64,000 nucleotides of DNA from Candidatus Saccharimonadales bacterium (GTDB lineage Bacteria > Patescibacteriota > Saccharimonadia > Saccharimonadales > UBA4665), in assembly GCA_035546975.1 (NCBI GenBank), contig DASZVS010000014.1, forward strand, positions 124,029-188,028. The letters run 5' to 3'. Made by a program: the position numbers and the translations under genes. Below the pieces are notes generated by a model, which saw only the letters and a program-made list of their open reading frames with translations, was not told where the DNA came from and made no database searches. Shown here in pieces: positions 19,535 to 48,050 of the stretch; within the stretch, counting starts at the first letter, position 1, and the number at the start of each line of letters is the position of its first letter.

Positions 19535-22500
19535 ATGAATATTAGACGTGGCTCAGGACGTAGCCGCCGCTCGCGAAACACCATCACCACCAAGAGCGGT
19601 AAGACTATCCCCTTGAACCGTTCATTGAGTGACCGCGTCAAAGCTGCGCGCGCCACCCGGGCAGCTGACCGGGCAACGTACCTAAGTACTTTGCCGAAAG
19701 GCCGCGCTAAACGGATGCTCTACCGCCTGCAGCCGAAACATTTAGCCGCCTATTGGTTTAGTCGAGAGGGCGGTATTATGGCGCTCAAAATTATCGGCGT
19801 GGCAATTATCGTCGGCTTTTTCCTGACTATCGGCATGTTCGCTTATTTCCGCAAGGACTTGCCGAAGATTAAAGACATCTCGGGCGACAATCTCGGCGGG
19901 AGCATAACGTATTACGACCGTACCGGCCAGATCGTACTGTGGCAGGATTACAACGCCGTTAAACGCATACCCGTACAAAGCAATCAGATCTCTCCTTATA
20001 TGAAAGAGGCCACAGTGGCTATTGAAGACAAAGATTTTTATAAGCACGGGGCTTTTGATGTCCGCGGTATTATGCGGGCCGGATTCCACGACATATTCGG
20101 CGGAGGCGGCGCCGTACAGGGCGGTTCAACAATTACCCAGCAGCTCGTCAAGCTTAATGAAAACTGGACAACTAACCGGACGGTTACCCGTAAAGTTAAA
20201 GAACTTATCTTGGCGGTCGAATTGGAACGTGAATATTCCAAAAATGACATCTTAACAGGCTACCTTAATATTGCTCCGTATGGCGGCGTGGAATACGGGG
20301 TTGAGAGCGCGGCGAGAGACTATTTTCAAACCGATGCAAAAGACCTGACGCTTCCCCAAGCGGCAATGCTTGCAGCCATCCCGCAGTCGCCAAGTTATTA
20401 TTCGCCGTACGCCAGCAGCCAGTTTAACCAATCCGTTACCGACAGCACCTTCAGCCAGTCCGCTCTTCTTAACCGCCAGCACTACATACTAGATCAGATG
20501 GCGCTGCAAGGGTACATTACCAAGCAGCAAGCCGACGACGCAAAAAAGGTTAATATTCTGGCAGAAATTCACCCGCAGGCACCAAAATACCAGGGTATTA
20601 AAGCGCCTTACTTCGTGCTCGCGGCCAAACAGGAGCTTGAACAAACCTACGGAGCCGCGACCGTACAGCGTGGCGGCTGGCAGGTCATCACAACGCTTGA
20701 TATGGACCTACAAAATAAGGCCGATGAGCTTGTTCAGCAAAATGTCCCTAATATCTCAAAATACGGAGCGGATGAGGAGGCGCTCGTCCTGGAGGACGTT
20801 CCGACAGGCCAAATGATGGCCCTCACAGGGGGTACTGATTTCACAAATCCCGACCATGGGCAAAACAACTACGCGGCCGGAATTCAGATACCGCCTGGTT
20901 CAAGCTTCAAGCCGTACGACTACACGACATTCATCAATAACAATAATAATGTCGGCGCAGGCTCCGTCCTGTACGATGTACAGCAGCCTTTGCCAGGCTA
21001 TCCGTGTACTAACCAAGCAAAACCGTTCAATAGTAGCGGTAATCCAACCGGCGGTAACTGTTTGTGGGACTATGACTTTAAATATCCTGGCCCAATAACC
21101 CTGCGCTATGCCCTCGGCGGCTCGCGTAACGTCCCGGCAGTCAAATCTATGCTGGAGGCCGTTCCGGGCGATAAGAGCACGAACTATACTAAATCAGTCA
21201 ATAAAGTCATTAGTACTGCTTCGGCGATGATGGACAATACATACGACCAATCCAAACATATACAGCCCTATAACTGTTATTCCGATGCTGCGCTTACAAA
21301 AACCACACAGTGTTATGGGGCATCGGCAATCGGCGACGGCGCCTACCTGCACCTCGATGACCATGTGAATGGCCTCGCGACGCTCGGGCGTATGGGCAAA
21401 GCCATCCCGCGAACCTACATCCTGAAAATTACCGATGCCGCAGGTAAGACCGTTTACCAATGGAAACAGCCTACCGGCCAACAAGTCGTAAAACAGGACG
21501 CAGCGTACATTGTCGATAATATGGCAAGCGACCCGCGGGCCAGCTACCTCCCCGGCAGCTGTACGACAACTACCTGTACTACGTTACGGAGCGGCGGCTA
21601 TAAGTTCCAACGCTACAATGGCTGGGATTTCGCAGTAAAGACTGGTACCACTAACAATGGTTTCGATGGATTGATGACAAGCTGGTCTACTAAATACGCT
21701 GTAGTTTCGTGGGTCGGCAACCATACGCGTAATGTCGAGTTGAATACCTCTATGGAGTACCTAACCGAACCGCTTACCCGCAATATGATGGAATATGCCC
21801 ATCAGAACCTCAAACCGGATAACTGGGTACAGCCGAAAGACATCAAGACGGCATCCGCCTACATCGTCCGAAACCATATCGACTACGGCGACCAAGAACC
21901 GAGCCCTTCGACCGATCTATATCCGTCATGGTATGTTGGCGGCGGCTCAAACAGCAAGAACACGTCCGCAACAATAGATAAAGTTTCGGGCAAACTGGCT
22001 ACGAGTTGTACGCCGGCAGCCGCTAAGGAATACGTCTACAACGCAAACGTCGCATCCTGGAATGTAGACATCTTTAAGGGAGGCACGCCGAATATCGGCA
22101 GCGGCAGCAGTAGCTCTAAGAGCAGTAACAGCTCCTCGGCGAGCGACGATGTCCATAACTGTAATGACAGTCCGCCGACAGTAACCTTAGTGGCTCCATC
22201 CACCTGTACGAGTAGCTGTACAATTACCGTAACCACTACCCAAGGCACTCATCCTTTCTCGGACCCGCAGTACCCGACCTATCCAGGGTTGCTTACGGTA
22301 ACACTCAATGGCCACACCATTTACTCGGCCCACATAGACTCCTCGCCTACCACCAAGAGCTTCACCTATACGCCTACAAGCAGTGGCGGGGGGACACTAG
22401 TGGCGACCGTGACTGACAGCGTCCTATATAGTGGCAGCCAGAGCACGCCATTTACCTACACAATTCCAGCCCCTACCCCAGCGCCAACAACTCAAGACCA

Positions 22501-24025: not shown

Positions 24026-25108
24026 TCAATTCTGTGTATTCTGCTGGCTCAAACGAGTATCCAGCGCTTTATCCAGAGTGGTCAACGCTTTAGCTATGTT
24101 ATTCCGGGCATCTACTAGCTGGTTGTACTGCGCGATAGCTTGCTTAAGCGCCCCTACGCCATTATTATACGAGCTAACTTGACTGTTAAAGGTTGGCACG
24201 GCGGCATTATAAGCAGCAGTTTGGCCGGAGGACAGTTCATTATCCAGCTGCTTTTTGAGGGCCATAATAGAACTTTGCTGGCTTTCGAGAGCCGCCTCTT
24301 GGCTGTCAATCTGTTTTTTCATGGCAGCAAGCTGCTGATCATCCTGGGCTATAGCATTCTGTCGTGCAGTAAACTCGTCCTGATAATGGTTGCTATACGC
24401 TACAATAGCCGCCCGGTTGGAGAAATATTTTTTATAATATGCCTCGAGTGGCGCCGGCAAATTGGCAATTTCTGTACCGAAAGTAGAGTGCATCTCATCG
24501 AGTACGGCTCCCGGCTCAGTTTGCTGGTACAACTTAATTTCACTGATAACTTGCGGGTCTTTTAAGCCATTTTTGTAATAATCATTGAGCATTTTGTTAA
24601 CGTTCGCCCGCTCTTCAGGACTGAGGCGCGCATAAATAGCATGGAGTGTCTCATGGGCAGCCGTCACTTGTGCCACGCCTTTAAGCGAAGGATCTTGGAC
24701 GTTGTAGATGTATATTCCGTTTTCGCCGGGGTGATAACAACCGAGGACAACGGTATCTTTATTCTCAGGACAGTGCTGCCGGAAACTGGTGATATTTGAT
24801 AAAAGTTCCGGCTTGTTCAGATAAAAAAGATGCTGGGCATACGGCGTCATGGTATCTTCCGTGGCCAGCTGGCTGACCGCCGAAGCGGGATGGTAGCCGC
24901 GCATCCGCCACCAGTCAGAAATACCTTGCCTATTGGCTATGATGAGCCCGAGCAGGATTGCCCACACCGCCACCATAGCGAACGTTATAGTCCATGCCCG
25001 CTTGGAGCGCCGCGGTTTTAGAGTGCGGATTCCTGGCAAAGGCCCGGCTGCCGGCCGAGGTGGCAATCCGGGTACTTCTGGAGGCGGAGATTGTGAATTG
25101 TCATTCAT
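24026..25108 (-). CDS. membrane-anchored hypothetical protein with HExxH motif and Gln-rich coiled-coil C-terminus
   Basis: 360 aa. Pro-rich N-tail, one TM helix (WTITFAMVAVWAILLGLIIA), AAHETLHAIY, and a C-terminal heptad-like Q/A/L-rich region. Confidence 0.6.
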   Translation of the reverse strand: MNDNSQSPPPEVPGLPPRPAAGPLPGIRTLKPRRSKRAWTITFAMVAVWAILLGLIIANRQGISDWWRMRGYHPASAVSQLATEDTMTPYAQHLFYLNKPELLSNITSFRQHCPENKDTVVLGCYHPGENGIYIYNVQDPSLKGVAQVTAAHETLHAIYARLSPEERANVNKMLNDYYKNGLKDPQVISEIKLYQQTEPGAVLDEMHSTFGTEIANLPAPLEAYYKKYFSNRAAIVAYSNHYQDEFTARQNAIAQDDQQLAAMKKQIDSQEAALESQQSSIMALKKQLDNELSSGQTAAYNAAVPTFNSQVSSYNNGVGALKQAIAQYNQLVDARNNIAKALTTLDKALDTRLSQQNTQN

Positions 25109-28093: not shown

Positions 28094-31000
28094 TCAGCTC
28101 TTGTCTTCGGGGTTTTTCGTCTCAGGCGAATAGACCGTACCGGGGCTTGCAGGATGATGGCCCGGAGCTTCGGACGGGGCTGACTGCTGCTCGGAAGAGA
28201 CAATGCGTGACGGCTCAACGGGACGCACGGTAGCAAGGCGGCTATTCCACGGCCGATAGATCAGCAGAGCGCCGCCCAGCAATGCCAGAACTGGTATGAC
28301 AAGCAAGAACGGGTTAACGGCGGCATGCGCCATCGACAGTTTAATATTTTGTAGATCATTACGGTGGGAGGAATTTGCGTCTTTTACATGAATAGTGCGG
28401 GATGTAACTTGGCCGTTGTACTGGACTGAGACGTCGTGCTTGCCCACGGGCACGTTAGTGAAGTAAGCAATGCCTTGCTGGTTGGTCTGCACCGTTTGGT
28501 TGTACAACGTAACTTGGGCGTGATAAGCCGGTCTATGGTGCTTGTCGAAAACAGTAATGGCTACGCGCGGCCTAACCGGCTGCTGGTGACTGCCGCTGCC
28601 AGAGTTGCTTCCACCATTACTACCACTCCCCGAGCCGGCTCCGCCCTGGCTCGAGCCGCCGCCCGAAGAAGAGGAGGAAGAGCTCACATAAGCAGACAGC
28701 GTGCAAGTCTGCCAAAGCTGTCCGGTTTTCCAGCTTGCAGGTAAGTCTGCAAGGTTATTACTACTGGGCGATTGCGAACAACTTCCAGAAGCGGCGTCGC
28801 GGAATTTAACTTTTCCGCCTGTGCCAAGTAAAGCAATCCAATACGTCGCACCCTTTGTAACGTTCGGTTTAGAGCTGAGCGTAATTGCATTCCATGCTGC
28901 AGGCTTAGGCGAATTAATGCTGCCGCTGGCCAATAAAGAACCTGGCTTACCGTTGCTGTCAGAGTAGAGCCCTGCCGTAACTGTGGTGGCGGCTGAACCG
29001 CTGTCCAGATAAAGGCTTATTGTACCGGCTTGGCCAGAGGCCACAGCGGTGTATTTAAATGCTTCCGGGCTGCCTGCTGCATCATTATCCTCTGCCGCCT
29101 GGACGCCATTAGTTCCGAGCAGCAAGTCGTTGCCGCCGCCATTATTACCCGAACCACCGCCTGAGGTGCTGGCCGCCGGCGTCGTTACGCTCACCGTTGC
29201 CGTCTTGTTACTGGCATTACCGGCCTTATCGACTGCACTGACTTGATAGGTATAGGTTGTTGACGGCTGGGCTGATGTGTCAGTGTATGCAGTGGCAGTT
29301 TGCGGAGATTGATTAAGCTGCTGGCCATTCCGATAAACGATATATCCGGCCAAGCCCGAGCCCCCCTTATCAGTTGAGTCGCCCCAACTAAGGTTGACTT
29401 GCGTGGAGCTATTGGCCGTGGCTTTCAGGCCGCCCGGTACTGTCGGAGCGGTTGTATCCTGCGGCGCCGGCGTCGTCGCGCTGGCAGCGGTTGATTGCGA
29501 AGATTTGTTGCCGGCACCATCGACGGCCTCTATCTTATAGCTGTACGTTGTATTTGCGCTAGCCGTGTCATCGCCGTATGTCGTGGTTGTAACCAGGCTT
29601 GAATTTATCTTGGTGCCATTTCGGTAAACGTTATAGCCTGCCAAACCCGAGCCGCCGGCATCCGTACTGGCATTCCAGCTAAGGTTGACTTGCGTGGAGC
29701 TTGCCGCGGTCGCCGAGATACCCGAAGGAGTACTTGGCGGCGTCGTGTCAGGAGTGCCTGTGCCTCCCCCGTTTGAGCCAGCGCAGCCGTTAGTGCCGTC
29801 GATACAGACTGGCTGCAAGTTATCGTCCCAAACATTGCCGCTCCAAGTTGTAGCTTTGCTGAAATAATACTCTGATATGCCATAGTTGCCTGACTTAGGG
29901 TAATAACCGTTGGCATCGGCTCCGCCCTGACAGGTCGTATTGCCGCCATTCGAGTGATAGACCGGAGCTGTTAAGCAGCGTGCCAGATGATTATTGGTGA
30001 TGCTCGTGCTACTGGAGCCCGCGCTTGTGCCATTGCCGCATGGATAGAACGTGAAGCCGCCGCCCGCTACCAGGCTATTTGATACGGTGACATGGTTGGA
30101 GCAAGTGCCGCCAGAGCCGCCATTGACGTTAGCGAAAACGACAGCCGTCTGCCCTACCGGGTTGAAGAATGTTGAGTGGTCCATATTCAATGTACTGTCA
30201 CTCATATATATGTTTTCTACATGATCCGTAGAAATAGCTATCTTAGCGATACCGTACGTATTGGTTACCGTAGCATTACCGACATTATATAAGTTGGAGT
30301 CACAACCATGCAGATAGGAACCGCTGATCTGGACCGTGCCCGAGCTCGTATTACGGATGTCATGCTCACAGGTGATACCAGGCGCGGTCAGTAATTCAAC
30401 GTTCTTGATGACCGTTCCGGTGACGCCTTCATTGATCCGGATTTCTGAATTACCGCAGGTGTTAGTGGCACCACAGCTGCCCGAATTCAAGGTAACGCGC
30501 GTATTTTCGACCGTGACATTATTAGCATCAATCTCTATTGAGCCAGCCACATCCTTGGCATTTATGACCTGTCCTGCCGTTGAGGCCGTGATAGAGCCCG
30601 ACGCGGTCAAAGCCGTGCCAGCCGGGACACCGGTGTTGGTAGGATCAGGATAGCCGCAGGCACTAGGCTTGGAGAAGCAATTCTTAGCTTGGGTACCACC
30701 GGTCGTACCACCGCTACCAGCGCTCGGCGTCGTCACGGATGCTGCCGCAGAATTGGCCGAGACGTTCCCGGCACCGTCGACGGCCTGAATAATATAACTG
30801 TAACTCGTATTGGCAACGGCATTGGTATCTGTGTAGCTAGTGCCGGCTACCTGGGCTATAACTGTTCCGCCGCGTAGGACGTTGTACTTAGCCACACCGG
30901 TAGCATTCGTGCCGCTATCTGTGGAAGCGCTCCAACTGAGATTGACGGTCGTGGCATTGCTAGCCGTGGCTTTAACGTTCGTAGGCGCACTTGGCGGCGT

Positions 31001-33601
31001 AGTATCCGGGTTATTGACGGTAAAGGTCACCGAGCTTGAGGCCGTATTGCCAGCAGCATCGTAGGCTTTAGCGGTAATGCTGTGCGACCCATTACCCAAC
31101 GTTTTACTATCGAATGAATAATTATACGGGCTGGCGGTATCCGTCATGGCTGGCGAGGAAGACTTGTCGACATAAAACTCAACCTTGGAAACACCGACAT
31201 TATCCGATGCGGAAGCAGTAGACGTGACAATCCCGGAAACTGTGCCACCGTTTGCAGGAGCAGTGATCGAGACCGTGGGTTTGGTAGTGTCGGTACCAGA
31301 GCCGCCCGTACCACCGCCGGAGCCAGAGCTACAACTACCGCTACCATCTTGTGTCGGGCATATAGTTTGCGAGTTATTATCCCAGACATTACCTGACCAA
31401 GTCAGTTTGCCTGTATCCGTTGCTAAGCCGTAATGCCCGCCGTATGGCCAGTAGCCGTTGCTGTCAGCTCCGCCCTTACAGACGTAACCCCCGCCGGAAT
31501 CCTGGCTCACAGAGCCCAGGCACCGGCCGACGCGATTATTGGTAATAGTAACTGGGGCGCTCACACCTTTAGAGTCGGGCTGCAACATCCAACCGCCGCC
31601 GGCGAGCAAGCTATTCGTAACAGATACCTGGTTTCCGGAACCGCATATGCCGTCACCGAATATCAGTGAGGTTTCATCGCTCGTATTGTATAGAGTTGAA
31701 TGATTAACGGTAGCCGGCGTGCCGCAAAGATAGATATTTTCACTATGGGCGCCGCTATACTCTGCATCGACAATCATATAAGAATCTTCTACGTCGACCG
31801 GGCCTTCCACATTATCCGGCGAGCCATGAACGTAGGAATTGACGATTTTAAAACCGGCATTACCATAATGATTCCATATGCCGGATTCCGGAGCATTGGT
31901 CTTCGAACCGTTGCCATAGATTTCGGAATTTTCGATTGTGAAGTTAGTGGCACCCTGGTTAAGAACGATCGCCGTGGTTCCGCTACCACCGCTACTGGTG
32001 TGAACTTTGGAATCTTTGAGCGTGACGTTAGGGGCATTGACCACTAGTTCGCCGGTGATGTCTTTGTCTTGTATGACCTGGCCATTAGTCGATGCCGTTA
32101 TTGAACCGGAGGATGCAAGAGTGGTGCCTGCTGGAACACCGGTATTGGTAGCGTCGGGATAGCCGCAGGCACTAGGCTTGGAGAAACAGTTGGAGGTCTG
32201 TGTGCCGCCAGTGGAACCGCCGCCGCTTGCGCTATTATTGACTGTGACCGTAACAGTGGAGGAAGTCGCCGTATTGCCGGCCGCATCGCGGGCAACGGCG
32301 GTAAGCGTATGCGTGCCGTTAGTAGCTTGCGTAGTATCCCAGGTCGTGCTGTATGGGCTCGTAGTGTCCTCGCTGCCCAGGTTAGCGCCGTCAAGCTTGA
32401 ATTGCACGCCGGCTACGCCCGTATCGTCATTAGCATTGGCGGATACGGTCACGCTTCCTGAGACGCTGGCGCTCTTAGCCGGTGCAGTAATTGAGACAGT
32501 AGGTGGGGTGGTATCTACCGGAGGACCGCTAGGGCTGCCATTGCTGCCGCAGCCAGCGCTGCCATCCGCGCACACCGCTTGCAGGTTATTATCCCAAATA
32601 TTGCCCGACCACGTCATACCCTTATCAAAGTAATACGCCGCGATGCCGTAACTGCCATCGCCCGGATAGTAACCATTGGAGTCAGTACCGTTCTTACAGA
32701 GGTGGTGGCCTCCGGAAGCTGAATCAACTTCGGTTGAAAGACAGCGCGCAAGATGATTGCTAGTTATGCTTATGCTGCTGGAGCCGGCGCTGCTGCCATT
32801 TCCGCAAGGATAGAAAGTATAGCCGCCGCCGGCGAGCAGGCTGTTAGTTACCGTAAGGTGGTTTGAACAAGTGCCTCCCTGGCCGCCGTTCACATTGCCG
32901 AAAATAACCGCTGTTTGATCGACGGGATTGTACAAAGTCGAGTGATTTACGGTTACTGTGCTGTCACTGAAATAGATATTCTCGATATGATCATTTGATA
33001 TATCTATTTTTGACAGGCCGTAATCATCGGTAAATGTGGTATTACCGACACTGTAAAGGTTAGAATCGCAGCCGTGCAGATAGGAGCCAATAACTTGGAT
33101 AGTCGACCCGAGGTTGCGAATATCGTGTTCGCAGGTATCGCCGGTAGTGTTCCGCAGCTCAACGTTTTTAATCACTATGCCGCTTAAACCCGGCTGGACT
33201 ATGATTTCATAATTACCGCAGGCATTGGTCGGGCCGCAGGTAGTGTTTGATGTAACCCGTGTGTTTTGGACGGTTACATTATTGGCGGTGATATTAATTA
33301 TGCCGGTGACATCTTTTCCATCGATAACCTGCCCGGCCGTTGAAGCCGTTATAGAGCCGGAAGCAGCAAGCGAAGTTCCGGCCGGAACGCCGGTATTGGT
33401 AGCATCAGGATAGCCGCAGGCACTAGGGATAGCAAAGCAATTTGAATTCTGGGTACTGGTGGCTGCAAAAGAGTTGAAAATAACATATGCGCCGGCCAAA
33501 CCGACGACAATGGCAACGAGCAGTAAAGGCAGTTTCGGGATCCGGCGGCGCTGGCTGAATTTTTCAGGAACCTGGCCGATGACTGGATTATTTTTGTCCA
33601 T
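28094..33601 (-). CDS. giant multidomain cell-surface protein (three beta-helix-like modules, Ig-like and FN3-like domains, C-terminal membrane anchor)
   Basis: 1835-aa ORF. N-terminal hydrophobic signal/anchor, three paralogous modules starting NCFxxPSACGYPDxTNTGVPAGT, PTVSITAP Ig-like domains and FN3-like repeats (VNLSW...AGYxVYRNG...AVDxAGN). S/G linker, a CarboxypepD_reg-like segment, a TM helix (PFLLVIPVLALLGGALLIY) and a Pro-rich tail. Confidence 0.85.
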   Translation of the reverse strand: MDKNNPVIGQVPEKFSQRRRIPKLPLLLVAIVVGLAGAYVIFNSFAATSTQNSNCFAIPSACGYPDATNTGVPAGTSLAASGSITASTAGQVIDGKDVTGIINITANNVTVQNTRVTSNTTCGPTNACGNYEIIVQPGLSGIVIKNVELRNTTGDTCEHDIRNLGSTIQVIGSYLHGCDSNLYSVGNTTFTDDYGLSKIDISNDHIENIYFSDSTVTVNHSTLYNPVDQTAVIFGNVNGGQGGTCSNHLTVTNSLLAGGGYTFYPCGNGSSAGSSSISITSNHLARCLSTEVDSASGGHHLCKNGTDSNGYYPGDGSYGIAAYYFDKGMTWSGNIWDNNLQAVCADGSAGCGSNGSPSGPPVDTTPPTVSITAPAKSASVSGSVTVSANANDDTGVAGVQFKLDGANLGSEDTTSPYSTTWDTTQATNGTHTLTAVARDAAGNTATSSTVTVTVNNSASGGGSTGGTQTSNCFSKPSACGYPDATNTGVPAGTTLASSGSITASTNGQVIQDKDITGELVVNAPNVTLKDSKVHTSSGGSGTTAIVLNQGATNFTIENSEIYGNGSKTNAPESGIWNHYGNAGFKIVNSYVHGSPDNVEGPVDVEDSYMIVDAEYSGAHSENIYLCGTPATVNHSTLYNTSDETSLIFGDGICGSGNQVSVTNSLLAGGGWMLQPDSKGVSAPVTITNNRVGRCLGSVSQDSGGGYVCKGGADSNGYWPYGGHYGLATDTGKLTWSGNVWDNNSQTICPTQDGSGSCSSGSGGGTGGSGTDTTKPTVSITAPANGGTVSGIVTSTASASDNVGVSKVEFYVDKSSSPAMTDTASPYNYSFDSKTLGNGSHSITAKAYDAAGNTASSSVTFTVNNPDTTPPSAPTNVKATASNATTVNLSWSASTDSGTNATGVAKYNVLRGGTVIAQVAGTSYTDTNAVANTSYSYIIQAVDGAGNVSANSAAASVTTPSAGSGGTTGGTQAKNCFSKPSACGYPDPTNTGVPAGTALTASGSITASTAGQVINAKDVAGSIEIDANNVTVENTRVTLNSGSCGATNTCGNSEIRINEGVTGTVIKNVELLTAPGITCEHDIRNTSSGTVQISGSYLHGCDSNLYNVGNATVTNTYGIAKIAISTDHVENIYMSDSTLNMDHSTFFNPVGQTAVVFANVNGGSGGTCSNHVTVSNSLVAGGGFTFYPCGNGTSAGSSSTSITNNHLARCLTAPVYHSNGGNTTCQGGADANGYYPKSGNYGISEYYFSKATTWSGNVWDDNLQPVCIDGTNGCAGSNGGGTGTPDTTPPSTPSGISATAASSTQVNLSWNASTDAGGSGLAGYNVYRNGTKINSSLVTTTTYGDDTASANTTYSYKIEAVDGAGNKSSQSTAASATTPAPQDTTAPTVPGGLKATANSSTQVNLSWGDSTDKGGSGLAGYIVYRNGQQLNQSPQTATAYTDTSAQPSTTYTYQVSAVDKAGNASNKTATVSVTTPAASTSGGGSGNNGGGNDLLLGTNGVQAAEDNDAAGSPEAFKYTAVASGQAGTISLYLDSGSAATTVTAGLYSDSNGKPGSLLASGSINSPKPAAWNAITLSSKPNVTKGATYWIALLGTGGKVKFRDAASGSCSQSPSSNNLADLPASWKTGQLWQTCTLSAYVSSSSSSSGGGSSQGGAGSGSGSNGGSNSGSGSHQQPVRPRVAITVFDKHHRPAYHAQVTLYNQTVQTNQQGIAYFTNVPVGKHDVSVQYNGQVTSRTIHVKDANSSHRNDLQNIKLSMAHAAVNPFLLVIPVLALLGGALLIYRPWNSRLATVRPVEPSRIVSSEQQSAPSEAPGHHPASPGTVYSPETKNPEDKS
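29792..30688 (-). repeat. beta-helix-like module 3 (aa ~972-1270)
   Basis: Close paralogue of module 1 at the protein level. Shares an exact 20-nt DNA core with modules 1 and 2. Confidence 0.7.
31352..32200 (-). repeat. beta-helix-like module 2 (divergent paralogue, aa ~468-750)
   Basis: Same opening motif (NCFSKPSACGYPDATNTGVPAGT) and closing motif (TWSGNVWDNN). The interior is divergent. Confidence 0.65.
32546..33448 (-). repeat. beta-helix-like module 1 of the giant protein (aa ~52-352)
   Basis: Shares TCEHDIRN, GSYLHGCDSNLY, GGTCSNH and FYPCGNG with module 3. Boundaries are approximate. Confidence 0.7.
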
Positions 33602-33604
33602 GGC

Positions 33605-34021
33605 CTATTTCTTTACCACTAATGTTCCATTTATAGTCGGGTGCAGCTGGTCATGATACCCAAAACTGCCGCTTGCGCTAGCCACATAGGTATAATCTTG
33701 GGCATTATTTAAAATTTGTGACTTCAGGCTTGGCAAGTCAGTGCCTTTCGGAAACGGATTCGCCGTTATTTGATGCAGCGTTTGGTCGTCATTAGTCCAT
33801 ACAACTTTTGTTCCGGCCTTGACAGCTAGAGTTGCCGGAACGAAGCCGTTTGGCGTGATCCGCACCGTAGCTACCTGTGAAGATGTTTGTTTGCCGCTAA
33901 TGTGCGATACCAGTACCGTAACCACGACAACCGCAACTACAAAAACTGCGAAACCGCCGGCCACTATTAATACTCTTCGTAATGGGCTCTGTCTTTCTGT
34001 CGGGGTAAGTTTTTCTTCCAT
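33605..34021 (-). CDS. membrane-anchored cupredoxin-like protein lacking the copper-ligand Cys
   Basis: 138 aa. One TM helix, then VRITPNGFVPATLAVKAGTKVVWTNDDQTLHQ...GYHDQLHPTINGTLVV, a plastocyanin/EfeO-like pattern. The protein contains no Cys at all. Its stop is 3 nt before the giant gene ATG. Confidence 0.6.
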   Translation of the reverse strand: MEEKLTPTERQSPLRRVLIVAGGFAVFVVAVVVVTVLVSHISGKQTSSQVATVRITPNGFVPATLAVKAGTKVVWTNDDQTLHQITANPFPKGTDLPSLKSQILNNAQDYTYVASASGSFGYHDQLHPTINGTLVVKK

Positions 34022-34158: not shown

Positions 34159-34800
34159 ATGCTTTCGTACAATGAAGAGCAGCTTCGCGCATTAGAAATC
34201 CGGCATCTATTCTGGCCCAGGACTTACATATTTTTTATCGAGGCTATAATAGCGGTTGTTTTATTACTGTTATTTAACGTAAGTACGCTTAATGACCAGG
34301 TGTTGAATGCAAATACCGGCGTCGATGCTAGCCCATTCTCTTTATGGGGCAATGTTTTTGATAAGACACTTGGCAACACCCAACATGCCGCCGCCGAGCA
34401 TATTCTGCTTTTTGGATTATGGGCACTGGTAGGCGCCTTACTATACGTACTTATCTTTCGCTTTTTGCAATTCTTTCTTAAGGCCCAGGGTTCGGTGCGC
34501 CAAGGAGCGTCTTTGATTCAGGCCGAACACAGCCAAGGCGCCATGCGCTACCTGGGTTCGCTTCATAATTTTTTTCTGAAGCTCATCGTTATAATCATCG
34601 GGACTATGGCAATACTCACGGGAGCGCTAGTTTGCTTCGGTATTGCAAGCCAGGAGCTCAGCAAGGGGCTAGACCAACCGTTGCCGAACAATTTGCTTTC
34701 TTTTTTGATCAGCTTCCTGGGAGCGCTATTGGCAGTGCGGCTGATTATAATCGGCGGCAGCTTGATCTCCCCCCGTTTCAGAGCCTGGTATAACTCCTAG
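34159..34800 (+). CDS. hypothetical integral membrane protein (about 4 TM helices)
   Basis: 213 aa with long hydrophobic segments. TGCTAAAAT extended -10-like element upstream. Confidence 0.55.
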   Translation: MLSYNEEQLRALEIRHLFWPRTYIFFIEAIIAVVLLLLFNVSTLNDQVLNANTGVDASPFSLWGNVFDKTLGNTQHAAAEHILLFGLWALVGALLYVLIFRFLQFFLKAQGSVRQGASLIQAEHSQGAMRYLGSLHNFFLKLIVIIIGTMAILTGALVCFGIASQELSKGLDQPLPNNLLSFLISFLGALLAVRLIIIGGSLISPRFRAWYNS

Positions 34801-44537: not shown

Positions 44538-46154
44538 TTAGCCGACTACGCGGGAGAGTTCTTCGAGTGTGGTTTCGCCTGCCACAACCTTGAGAATGCC
44601 ATCTTGCTCCATAGTGCGCATACCGGACTTGATGGCAGCCTCTTCAAGGTTCTGCGTCGTAGCCACAATATGCGGGTTTTCCAGAACTTCGCGGAGAGGT
44701 TCGCTCATCATAAATTGCTCCCGGATAGCCAGCTGGCCCTGGAAGCCATACGGGTTTGCCTCGGACTTGCCCGGCTCATAGAGCTTCAGCCCGTCGAGGT
44801 TAGGCCGGGGAATTGCCTCCGGCAACGTATTAACGACTTCGTTGATATGATTCCATTCGGCTTCAGAGGGATCCCTCGCCTGCTTCGTGCTGTCATCCAA
44901 CCGCCGGATCAAGCGCTGCGCCATAACAAGCCGGATGGCTGATATGAAGAGCGGGTTTTGGCCGATGATGTCGGCTATACGCGTTAACGCGGCGGCGGCT
45001 GACGAGGCGTGGAAGGTACAAAGCACCAGGTGTCCGGTCAATGCCGCCTGCAAGGCTGTGCGGGCAGTATCCATGTCGCGAATTTCGCCGACCATCACAA
45101 TGTCCGGGTCAAGGCGCAAAACAGCGCGCAATTTATCCGCAAAGCTATCATCGTTGCCGCCTTCGCTGGAATGCACGGAAATTTGGGTGATTCCCGGGAA
45201 CTGGTATTCCACCGGGTCTTCGATAGTGATGATTTTGCGCTCTTCGGTATTAAGCGAATTAAGCATGGAATACAGCGTCGTTGTTTTGCCGGAACCGGTC
45301 GGGCCGACAATCATGACTAGGCCGCTCGGTTTCGCGATAATGTCATCGACCACTTTGCGCTCCTGCTCGGAGAGGCCGAGCCGGTCTAGCGTATACATTG
45401 ACTGGTCCATATTAAAGAGGCGCATCACGACATCCATACCGTTGATAGTTGGCACCGTCTCCAGGCGCACGTTTACATCAACCTCATTGCCGTCAGCCAT
45501 TTTGATGCGCTGCGCAATGTGGCCCTGCTGCGCTTCATTGGTAGATGTTGAAACATTGCCGGCGCTAGCAATGGCTGAGATCAAAATGCGGTACTTATCC
45601 GGCTGCAGGTGGGCGATAGGATGCAGCACGCCGTCGATTCTGAAGCGAATGCGTATGTAATCGCGCTGCGTTTCGATGTGAATGTCAGAAGCATTAAGCC
45701 GGTGCGCCTGCGCCACCAGGTACGCCAGCATGTCATCGGCGCGGACTTGCGCCAAAATGTTTGATATTTGCTCAACCAGCTCGCTCGTCCCCGCTTGGTT
45801 GATCTCAATATCTTGGTACACGATTTGCTTCGGCGGGTCGTACAAACGCATATATTCCCTGTACCCGGCGTCTGAAATGATGGCAAAACTAACGCGCTGG
45901 TCGGCAAACCGCTGCCTCAGGTCGGCCATTGTCTTCTGCGACGTCGTTGTCGTTATGCCAAACAGAATGTTGCTTTTGTCGGACCGAACAGGTATCACCT
46001 TGAGCTGATACAGCTCCGGCACCGTTAGCCAGTCTTTATAAAGCGGCTTGGGGCCGGGCTGTGAGGTGTCGAAGTAATCCATGCCGAGCACTTGGGCACG
46101 ATGCTGGGTCGATTGCTCTTCATCCCGGCGGGCACGGTTATCATCTGGATTCAT
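44538..46154 (-). CDS. pilB: type IV pilus / type II secretion assembly ATPase (GspE/PilB family)
   Basis: 538 aa. N-terminal T2SSE_N-like domain, Walker A GPTGSGKTTT, Asp box and Walker B (VMVGEIRD), and a His box. Confidence 0.85.
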   Translation of the reverse strand: MNPDDNRARRDEEQSTQHRAQVLGMDYFDTSQPGPKPLYKDWLTVPELYQLKVIPVRSDKSNILFGITTTTSQKTMADLRQRFADQRVSFAIISDAGYREYMRLYDPPKQIVYQDIEINQAGTSELVEQISNILAQVRADDMLAYLVAQAHRLNASDIHIETQRDYIRIRFRIDGVLHPIAHLQPDKYRILISAIASAGNVSTSTNEAQQGHIAQRIKMADGNEVDVNVRLETVPTINGMDVVMRLFNMDQSMYTLDRLGLSEQERKVVDDIIAKPSGLVMIVGPTGSGKTTTLYSMLNSLNTEERKIITIEDPVEYQFPGITQISVHSSEGGNDDSFADKLRAVLRLDPDIVMVGEIRDMDTARTALQAALTGHLVLCTFHASSAAAALTRIADIIGQNPLFISAIRLVMAQRLIRRLDDSTKQARDPSEAEWNHINEVVNTLPEAIPRPNLDGLKLYEPGKSEANPYGFQGQLAIREQFMMSEPLREVLENPHIVATTQNLEEAAIKSGMRTMEQDGILKVVAGETTLEELSRVVG

Positions 46155-47168: not shown

Positions 47169-48050
47169 ATGACACTGGTCACAAAACCCAAAAGAAACAC
47201 CAGGCACCATAAAAAGCGCAGCGGCAAGCATCATCGCCATAGCGATCATTACCTGAAGACGTATTGGCCGTACATACCGATGCTGTTGGTTGTTGGTTTC
47301 GGCCTGCTTGTTAATAGCATGTGGTCGCACGCCGGTGTCCTCGGCGTTAATAGCAACTTTACGAGTGCTTCCCTGCTGAATTCCACAAATACCCAACGGG
47401 TAGCCGATCATGAATCCGCTCTGAGTCTTAACCAGCAACTTACGTCAGCAGCCCAGGCTAAAGCCAATGATATGGTCCAAAAAGATTACTGGGCGCACAA
47501 CTCGCCGGATGGCAAAACGCCCTGGACCTTCATAAACGCCGCCGGCTACAGCTACCAGATGGCCGGTGAAAATCTGGCTTTCGGTTTTGATAACGCCGGC
47601 GACACTATTTCAGGCTGGATGAACAGCCCAACGCATCGCGCCAACATACTCAATGCCGGCTATAAAGATGTCGGCTTCGGCGTAGCGAGCTCGCCCAATT
47701 ACCAGGGTCACGGACCGGAAACAGTGGTTGTCGCCGAATACGCTACTCCTGCGGAAGCGTTACCTGCCGGCGGTACGGCTGGAGCCCCGGATACGAACAC
47801 GCCCATCGCGGCTAAGCCAGTCTCGCGCATTCAAATCCTTACCGGGCAAGATGCCTGGATAACTTCAGCCGTATCCGCACTTGCTGGCGCGGCTATAGCA
47901 GTCTTCTTAGTACGGCATGGGCTGCGCTTTAAGCGGCTCGCGCTGGAAGGCGAGAGCTTTGTTCTGCATCATCCAATGCTCGATATAGCGATTGTATTTG
48001 TCGGCACTATGGCAGTTGTCTTCGCCCAGGCAAGCGGCAACATTCACTAA
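47169..48050 (+). CDS. membrane-anchored CAP/SCP (YkwD-like) domain protein
   Basis: His/Lys/Arg-rich N-tail and a TM helix. CAP motifs (DYWAHNSPDG, GENLAFG, GWMNSPTHRANIL, VGFGV). C-terminal TM helices. Confidence 0.75.
   Translation: MTLVTKPKRNTRHHKKRSGKHHRHSDHYLKTYWPYIPMLLVVGFGLLVNSMWSHAGVLGVNSNFTSASLLNSTNTQRVADHESALSLNQQLTSAAQAKANDMVQKDYWAHNSPDGKTPWTFINAAGYSYQMAGENLAFGFDNAGDTISGWMNSPTHRANILNAGYKDVGFGVASSPNYQGHGPETVVVAEYATPAEALPAGGTAGAPDTNTPIAAKPVSRIQILTGQDAWITSAVSALAGAAIAVFLVRHGLRFKRLALEGESFVLHHPMLDIAIVFVGTMAVVFAQASGNIH

Follow-up and report, generated by a model that had tools for sequence, protein, structure and literature searches.

Exchangeable beta-helix heads on a putative surface scaffold encoded at a conserved locus in Candidatus Saccharimonadales

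We report that the largest open reading frame (ORF) in a 64-kb stretch of DNA from Candidatus Saccharimonadales (hereafter the window, meaning the whole stretch analysed) encodes a protein of 1835 amino acids (aa) that carries three modules, M1, M2 and M3, of an unnamed protein family. On balance, and with modest confidence, we favour the reading that this protein is a surface scaffold displaying exchangeable glycan-recognising, probably glycan-cleaving, heads aimed at the surface polysaccharide of a bacterial, probably actinobacterial, host. A previous interpretation made from the DNA letters alone (the sequence-only reading) had proposed host attachment or degradation of host-envelope glycans by a small-genome, possibly epibiotic organism. 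The source lineage is indeed one of small-genome epibionts, and the host-glycan idea is strengthened by the Wzx/Wzy context of the module family and by polysaccharide-lyase swaps in syntenic orthologues, while catalysis, target glycan and surface exposure are put forward here as predictions.

The next-largest ORFs in the window encode 1195 and 1183 aa (DnaE and RpoB), in agreement with the size ranking given before. The module boundaries were set by a hidden Markov model (HMM) built from homologues, and together with Pfam, hydropathy and AlphaFold2 (AF2) modelling of the beta-sandwich region they bear out the domain layout that had been read by eye from the translation:

28094..33601, minus strand: whole gene, protein P0128, with the NCBI name 'Ig-like domain-containing protein' (Candidatus Saccharimonadales)
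33461..33601, minus strand: N-terminal leader, aa 1-47 (hydropathy; conservation in scaffold relatives)
32549..33451, minus strand: head module M1, aa 51-351, of the M1-type beta-helix subfamily (homologue HMM, AF2)
32297..32503, minus strand: Big_7 Ig-like spacer, aa 367-435 (Pfam)
31331..32200, minus strand: head module M2, aa 468-757, chimeric and of another subfamily than M1 and M3 (homologue HMM)
31016..31279, minus strand: second Ig-like spacer (Big_7/Big_13), aa 775-862, with the Big_7 match at ~775-849 (Pfam)
30719..30997, minus strand: fn3 domain 1, aa 869-961 (Pfam)
29783..30691, minus strand: head module M3, aa 971-1273, M1-type beta-helix (homologue HMM)
29492..29737, minus strand: fn3 domain 2, aa 1289-1370 (Pfam)
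29204..29437, minus strand: fn3 domain 3, aa 1389-1466 (Pfam)
28676..29140, minus strand: domain X, aa 1488-1642, a predicted jelly-roll beta-sandwich, weakly DUF4082-like
28589..28675, minus strand: Ser/Gly-rich linker, aa 1643-1671 (sequence)
28370..28564, minus strand: CarboxypepD_reg domain, aa 1680-1744, just clearing the Pfam cutoff (32.8 vs 32.3 bits) when the segment is scanned by itself
28250..28318, minus strand: C-terminal transmembrane (TM) helix, aa 1762-1784 (hydropathy; kept in relatives)
28097..28249, minus strand: presumed cytoplasmic tail, aa 1785-1835, with conserved RPWNxRL … PGTVYxP motifs

Pfam analysis of the whole protein gave two Big_7 and three fn3 matches above threshold (125.7 bits for Big_7, 74.3 bits for fn3), and NCBIfam and all-PDB sequence searches matched only the Ig and fn3 parts. 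The three modules are homologous; M1 and M3 are 69% identical (E 2e-147), M1 and M2 46% (E 4e-76) and M2 and M3 42% (E 4e-68), and the opening motif NCFxxPSACGYPDxTNTGVPAGT and the closing motif TWSGN[IV]WD[ND]N, noticed earlier, were found in all three. Besides the helix at aa 1762-1784, hydropathy marks a hydrophobic helix at aa 23-45 of the leader, the n-region of which is basic (EKFSQRRRIPKLP), and cleavage would take place at S-F-A|A, a signal-peptidase-like site. The leader, the TM helix and the features of the conserved tail agree with the suggestion of a secreted surface protein held by a C-terminal membrane anchor, and a regular-expression search of the whole protein (LPx[TSA][GAN]) detected no LPXTG-like motif, as had also been stated.

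Comparison of syntenic genes indicates that the locus is a conserved, putative display scaffold with exchangeable heads. Specifically, three relatives (P0129, P0131 and P0184) reside at the same locus with the same gene order (Cupredoxin_1 - giant gene - ClpC). P0129 (locus L076) has three modules and P0131 has two, of M1 and M2 type, while P0184 (locus L077) has no module and carries two Polysacc_lyase (PF14099) domains instead. Judged by ClpC (HVV67332.1 in the window), L077 is as close to the window as L076 is, since the identities are 89.5% vs 89.3%, and its scaffold segments (Big_7, Big_7 plus fn3, and the two fn3 domains) are 68-77% identical to those of the window; no counterpart of M1, M2, M3 or domain X was detectable in L077. 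The PF14099 domain occurs at equivalent positions in P0145, P0184 and P0240, and Pfam gave no such match in the window protein. Other relatives have one module plus PF14099, or PF14099 plus a Beta_helix/NosD domain, and RGI_lyase-like or fn3 modules are also present in related proteins. The leader and the C-terminal TM-and-tail motifs are conserved throughout the scaffold relatives. Moreover, the best match of window M1 in P0129 is the third module (L076 10914..11807), with which it shares 86% identity and window M3 71%, so the module order has been permuted or exchanged between the lineages, and module 2 shows 91% identity between the window and the P0129 genome, above that of ClpC (89%). In some scaffold relatives a type I dockerin takes the place of the TM anchor at the end of the protein (P0172 at its C-terminus and P0335 at aa 1468-1511), which implies another, non-covalent way of surface attachment and possibly a cohesin partner in these genomes.

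The module family is large. With M1 as query >1000 proteins were retrieved, every named one annotated as 'hypothetical', and when 1.84 billion cluster representatives (50% identity level) were searched exhaustively with a profile, 4,323 passed E<=1e-3 and 1,950 passed E<=1e-10. Representative genomes of GTDB place the centre of the family in Solirubrobacterales and Thermoleophilia (<=65% identity to M1), and it is present in other Actinomycetota (Gaiellales, Acidimicrobiales, Micromonosporaceae, Cellulomonas and Nocardioides); outside this phylum it was found in a few Proteobacteria and Myxococcales and in several Saccharibacteria. Nearly all family proteins have a single module situated at the C-terminus, with a median of 1 residue after it and ~119 before it.

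The family is a regular accessory of Wzy-type surface-polysaccharide pathways. In a census covering 33 loci in different genomes, the three ORFs closest to the homologue on either side were called and all 189 were compared with Pfam. GT2 was the commonest family with 18 ORFs, followed by GT1/GT4 with at least 14, Wzy_C with 11 and flippases of the Wzx type with 4, i.e. at least 47 of the 189 ORFs; DegT, Hexapep and UDP-GlcNAc 2-epimerase also turned up. The same census around eight single-module homologues of Saccharibacteria gave one GT1 in 72 ORFs (at least 47/189 vs 1/72; Fisher p = 1.2e-6). As an example, an Actinomycetes metagenome-assembled genome (locus L074) has two adjoining homologues within a Wzx/Wzy cluster comprising a Bac_transf initiating sugar transferase, a DegT aminotransferase, an epimerase, four GT2 genes, Wzx, an acetyltransferase and Wzy_C, as well as a GT1/GT4-type glycosyltransferase (weak match). 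On plasmid p2 of Pararhizobium qamdonense, a cultured isolate annotated with PGAP (L078), a distant homologue (WP_276121614.1) lies in a polysaccharide-gene region, between genes for GT2, WecB, WecC and a TagA/CpsF-type transferase and a Wzz/CpsD pair.

Some neighbours of the family members deserve mention in their own right. In the exopolysaccharide (EPS) cluster of L078 (6451..11804), WP_276121614.1 has as its neighbours a 754-aa 'calcium-binding protein' and a Hint-domain protein, an unusual combination that may be co-secreted. At the edge of the L074 cluster (19992..21434) there is a gene, exceeding the locus, for a 1707-aa actinobacterial protein in which DMFA2_C, Big_7 and fn3 domains occur together with repeats of DUF4082; the Saccharimonadales scaffold draws on the same repertoire of spacers and DUF4082. 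At L073 (12507..17332) the gene of P0002 from Solirubrobacterales, the closest actinobacterial M1-type homologue, has a phage-type integrase upstream, and downstream of it lie six tandem ORFs of ~200-220 aa that match nothing in Pfam; the region is no polysaccharide cluster and could be mobile or variable.

The usual Wzx/Wzy context would also be expected if the heads were self-directed enzymes, tethered to the membrane of the producer and processing the epibiont's own extracellular or cell-wall polysaccharide (chain length, release or remodelling), as their relatives would do in Actinomycetota. A precedent is WceF of Pantoea stewartii, a tailspike-like beta-helix glycosidase encoded in the stewartan cluster that cleaves this EPS (PMC7949094), and Saccharibacteria do make an EPS, the genes of which matter for growth on hosts (PMC10633639). 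We nevertheless regard self-processing as quite unlikely. The window gene and its syntenic orthologues are situated amid housekeeping genes. In the window these are TyrRS, a penicillin-binding protein, RadA and ClpC to one side of the gene, with NusA, an M1 aminopeptidase and RNase HII beyond its opposite end, and a scan of the ~30 largest among 55 called window ORFs identified no glycosyltransferase, Wzx or Wzy gene. The single-module homologues of Saccharibacteria likewise lack such neighbours, as the census showed, and three heads of two subfamilies together with wholesale replacement by unrelated lyase domains in an equally close relative fit one self polymer poorly.

A cell-bound, cellulosome-like multi-enzyme complex that forages on environmental polysaccharides (EPS of soil biofilms, necromass or plant polymers) and involves no host recognition would account for the dockerins of P0172 and P0335 and for relatives with PF14099, RGI_lyase-like or fn3 modules, which are typical of carbohydrate-active enzymes; Saccharibacteria are, moreover, sugar fermenters. 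On the other hand, the head family is tied to bacterial Wzy-type clusters and not to plant-polymer utilisation loci, no transporters or sugar-catabolic genes adjoin the giant gene among the window ORFs scanned, and the fast exchange of heads at a conserved, single-copy locus is suggestive of a specificity determinant. Foraging therefore appears improbable to us, and it would overlap with the host-directed reading if the 'food' is the capsule of the host.

To predict the fold of the heads, an alignment of M1, M2, M3 and 55 database homologues (58 members) was used as AF2 input. The resulting M1 model (mean predicted local distance difference test, pLDDT, 95.8; predicted template modelling score, pTM, 0.93) has 29 short strands and one short helix, and the top 50 Foldseek matches of this model in the PDB are all right-handed parallel beta-helix proteins, including phage tailspike depolymerases, pectate, alginate and fucoidan lyases, GH87 glucanases, pectin methylesterases and DFA-IIIase; the template modelling (TM) scores of its structural neighbours range between 0.2 and 0.46. 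The beta-helical nature of the modules, suggested by the sequence-only reading, is thus borne out by the model and its neighbours. In Pfam, the window modules match no family, including Beta_helix (PF13229), Pectate_lyase and NosD, and none of the 58 family members reaches any threshold; below threshold, Pectate_lyase_4 appeared in two members (E 0.011) and Beta_helix in two (E 0.82). We concur with the earlier statement that no characterised family can be assigned, as Pfam, NCBIfam and PDB sequence searches give none for the modules. Taken together, the model and these searches support the view that the modules represent a distinct, unnamed branch of the right-handed beta-helix fold class.

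Residue conservation was computed on 120 family members after redundancy filtering at <=60% identity. In module numbering, the polar residues that stand out as conserved are Y144, H155 (97%), E157, Y160, H170, N175, N232, R236 (96%) and D287, and every one of these positions is kept in M1, M2 and M3; a GGG turn and the C..P..CG.P cap are also conserved family-wide. Such His/Tyr/Arg/Asn/Glu sets resemble the residues of metal-independent uronate lyases and epimerases, which we take as a lead only. By contrast, the suggestion of an active site built from Cys/His/Asp motifs is not supported, since TCEHDIRN and HGCDSN are confined to the M1-type subfamily and the cysteines look like disulfide pairs. 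The cysteine counts (12, 8 and 12 in M1, M2 and M3, two in domain X and none elsewhere) are even, which suggests disulfides in an exported protein.

The conserved set bears on whether the heads cleave at all. As a binding-only adhesin, with the beta-helices and domain X acting as lectins and the conserved residues forming a binding site, the protein would keep the epibiont on a target cell or matrix and cleave nothing. Non-catalytic beta-helix adhesins exist and one of these, PfbA, is among the weak fold matches; WceF shows lectin-like agglutination and slow cleavage (PMC7949094); no catalytic motif of a known CAZy family was detected in the Pfam and PDB profile searches; and the stalk-like Ig/fn3 architecture is typical of adhesins. 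However, the invariant set is rich in acid/base residues (the nearly invariant His and Arg together with Glu, Tyr and Asp) and is kept in three heads, in orthologues the place of the heads can be taken by bona fide polysaccharide-lyase domains, and membership in biosynthetic clusters suggests polymer processing. We therefore consider pure binding rather unlikely, although less so than the two preceding alternatives.

The region previously described as a further beta-sandwich-like region is a real domain at aa ~1488-1642 (domain X), for which AF2 gave an all-beta model, a beta-sandwich, with a pLDDT of 89 and a pTM of 0.87. In local HMM searches, 23 of 143 diverse family representatives proved to have a domain X homologue near their N-terminus, always upstream of the beta-helix and with E values as low as 3e-40, and the domain was also detected at seven actinobacterial loci. 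Its similarity to DUF4082 (PF13313) is weak (16.1 bits, E 0.011, against a threshold of 28.4 bits), and two of its homologues carry PF13313 in precomputed annotation. The structures nearest to the model are jelly-rolls of a cyanophage capsid protein, the central fibre of mycobacteriophage Douge, the Bxb1 tail tip and the phi812 baseplate, with CBM6 and lectin-like domains lower in the list. Domain X is most simply read as a putative carbohydrate-binding partner of the beta-helix.

Trees were computed by neighbour joining to follow the origin of the heads. M2 groups with the actinobacterial homologue at L027 in 100 of 100 bootstraps, and with L027 and L021 in 97 of 100, and monophyly of M1, M2 and M3 was recovered in 0 of 100; in a tree that also includes the orthologues, the M2-type modules of Saccharimonadales are united in one clade (79%), with L027 as its sister (100%). 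According to these trees M2 did not arise by duplication of M1 or M3 within the gene, and of the earlier description as three paralogous modules the close relationship between M1 and M3 stands whereas M2 belongs to another subfamily. M2 is in addition mosaic: its residues 26-50 are M1-type (76% vs 33% identity to L027, p = 0.004) and its residues 51-290 are L027-type (66% vs 41%, p = 4e-8), and all orthologous M2-type modules have the same M1-type pattern at residues 26-50. These data support the notion of a chimeric M2 that arose through older recombination in the conserved N-terminal cap, which would represent one route of head exchange. Recent gene conversion was rejected as the cause of the near-identical module openings because these are 80-87% identical as protein but only ~70% as DNA, and because the first 25 residues are conserved family-wide. 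The contigs of the actinobacterial relatives have a GC content of 64-71%, and the window modules 50-51%, the same as their own genome; mis-binning of the 'Solirubrobacterales' relatives was likewise rejected given this GC content and the length of several of these contigs (0.3-2.5 Mb). The simplest reading of the trees is at least two old transfers from Solirubrobacterales-like Actinomycetota to this Saccharimonadales clade, followed by in-gene duplication and shuffling, where the probable direction is indicated by the nesting and by the far greater diversity in Actinomycetota.

In the host-directed reading that we favour, the protein would be exported by the Sec pathway, cut at the leader site given above and tethered by its C-terminal TM helix, leaving the conserved tail of ~50 aa in the cytoplasm. 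The stalk of CarboxypepD_reg, Ser/Gly linker and Big_7/fn3 domains would project M1-M3 and the lectin-like domain X outward. The ligand of the heads would be a bacterial heteropolysaccharide, because ordinary members of the family are secreted single-module proteins encoded in Wzx/Wzy clusters, mainly in Actinomycetota, and the heads may cut or modify this polymer (by a lyase-, hydrolase- or epimerase-type reaction) and not just bind it, as suggested by the His/Glu/Tyr/Arg/Asn/Asp set kept family-wide and in all three heads. Two head subtypes, which presumably entered this Saccharimonadales clade from Solirubrobacterales-like Actinomycetota, are mounted on a lineage-specific scaffold at a fixed locus, where heads are shuffled, recombined or, in equally close relatives, replaced outright by PF14099 domains. 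The role would then be recognition and local thinning of the host surface polysaccharide in the manner of a tailspike depolymerase, and head exchange would tune the target specificity.

That the polysaccharide belongs to a host is favoured because the gene is uncoupled from any polysaccharide-synthesis cluster, because one and the same locus carries heads of different families in genomic backgrounds that are nearly identical, because the nearest relatives of the heads are found in Actinomycetota, the phylum hosting cultured Saccharibacteria (PMC10633639), and because actinobacterial hosts remodel their cell-wall polysaccharide synthesis under epibiont infection (PMC13622651).

Several points weigh against this reading. 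The arguments for 'host' over 'self' or 'environmental' polysaccharide are indirect. The structural matches of the M1 model are distant in the PDB (best E 9e-3, query TM score <=0.41) and weak among the viral structures of BFVD, where nearly all named matches are beta-helix proteins (best E 7.5e-4, TM score <=0.46), so that no catalytic mechanism can be transferred from them. When the profile of the 58 members was searched against all PDB sequences it retrieved no solved beta-helix and only spurious matches to SIN3. Flanking ORFs in the census were called by a crude ORF caller, and the neighbour-joining trees are based on ~300 columns with uneven sampling; in these the M1-type Saccharimonadales modules (plus one unplaced fragment) cluster at only 50%, beside Solirubrobacterales. 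The GC content is fully ameliorated, so the transfers are old and the present-day host cannot be read directly from them. Finally, a tblastn search with M1 against 50,697 phage genomes gave no match, and a phage origin of the module is accordingly not supported.

The module relatives and the window protein share features with known systems and differ from each of them. Like WceF and AmsF, the stand-alone module relatives are secreted beta-helix proteins encoded inside Wzy-dependent clusters. The family differs from WceF in that it has no sequence similarity to any solved beta-helix in the PDB profile search and only weak structural likeness; unlike WceF and AmsF, the window gene lies outside any polysaccharide cluster (its neighbours being ClpC, a cupredoxin-like gene and NusA), and unlike WceF it comes from an epibiont and its product would carry three heads on a membrane-anchored stalk. 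With PL1, PL3, PL6, PL9, GH28, GH87, CE8 and AlgG/AlgE the modules have in common the fold class and an [IV]x[IV]xN-type rung pattern, but they reach no family threshold, show no recognisable signature catalytic motif and have a different conserved His/Glu/Tyr/Arg/Asn set.

Likeness to phage tailspikes extends to the beta-helix fold, with Acinetobacter Fri1 gp49, Pseudomonas LKA1 gp49 and the Klebsiella K2-2 tailspike protein among the top Foldseek matches, to heads that sit on a conserved attachment scaffold and are swapped among close relatives, and to domain X, which resembles fibre and baseplate jelly-rolls. The window gene differs in being cellular, chromosomal and vertically syntenic, with no module homologue in the phage genomes searched, and its heads are monomeric-looking tandem units in one polypeptide with a putative TM-helix anchor, unlike the trimeric spike. 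As a more far-reaching version of the host-directed reading, the locus could be an analogue of phage receptor-binding-protein cassettes, a host-range determinant with glycan-recognising or depolymerising heads captured from polysaccharide-processing genes of the host lineage itself and exchanged through recombination at the conserved module caps; this we offer tentatively, as a possibility that we would sooner expect to fail than to hold.

Among Saccharibacteria, Southlakia epibionticum has essential large envelope proteins (SEML1_0890, SEML1_0891 and SEML1_0315) that bear glycan-binding or glycan-degrading domains and for which host-glycan targeting has been proposed by the authors (PMC10633639). 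These are from the same phylum and lifestyle and are likewise large envelope proteins with fn3, lectin-like or dockerin domains (PMC10633639), but judged by their descriptions only they contain VCBS, dockerin and fn3 domains and not this beta-helix family, and they come from an oral and not a soil lineage. That Saccharibacteria envelope proteins target host glycans has thus already been proposed for other domain types (PMC10633639); our literature search found no specific prior description of such proteins in soil Saccharibacteria, and what is new here is the unnamed beta-helix family with its domain X partner, the link to Wzy clusters, the apparent capture from Actinomycetota and the cassette-like turnover of heads.

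To our knowledge, little is known beyond type IV pili about how Saccharibacteria and other Patescibacteria choose and attach to their hosts, and the hosts of the soil lineages are not known. The locus described here provides a syntenic, rapidly diversifying candidate specificity determinant, and the nearest relatives of its heads are a source of host hypotheses that point to Solirubrobacterales and Thermoleophilia. If the analogy with receptor-binding cassettes is true, the nearest cellular relatives of each head, here Solirubrobacterales, would predict the hosts of an uncultured Saccharimonadales strain. In addition, the modules are an entry point to an unnamed beta-helix family of >4,000 clusters (50% identity) that is standard in actinomycetotal Wzx/Wzy clusters and has no Pfam model, and should the heads be depolymerases they would also provide new enzymes with specificity for the surface glycans of actinobacteria.

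The closest neighbour of the giant gene is the cupredoxin-like gene:

33605..34021, minus strand: 138-aa Cupredoxin_1-like membrane protein, ending 3 nt upstream of the giant gene

It is a probable operon partner of the giant gene because it has the same position in every syntenic orthologue; its product is 59-70% identical in three syntenic relatives. Promoter and terminator scans at the locus were no better than those of shuffled sequences and thus give no information on the operon. The Cupredoxin_1-like protein has an N-terminal TM helix and His83, His122 and His126 at ligand-like positions, and its complete lack of cysteine rules out a classical type-1 copper site.

A 213-aa multi-TM protein without Pfam match is encoded at 34159..34800 (plus strand), in divergent orientation to the cupredoxin gene, and a 360-aa protein, also without Pfam match, is encoded between ClpC and RadA at 24026..25108 (minus strand); both ORFs keep their position in L075, L076 and L077 (45-64% identity). 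Type IV pilus machinery is the known host-attachment system of Saccharibacteria, and the window also encodes a PilB-type T2SSE ATPase (44538..46154, minus strand) and a secreted CAP-domain protein (47169..48050, plus strand), 11-14 kb from the giant gene.

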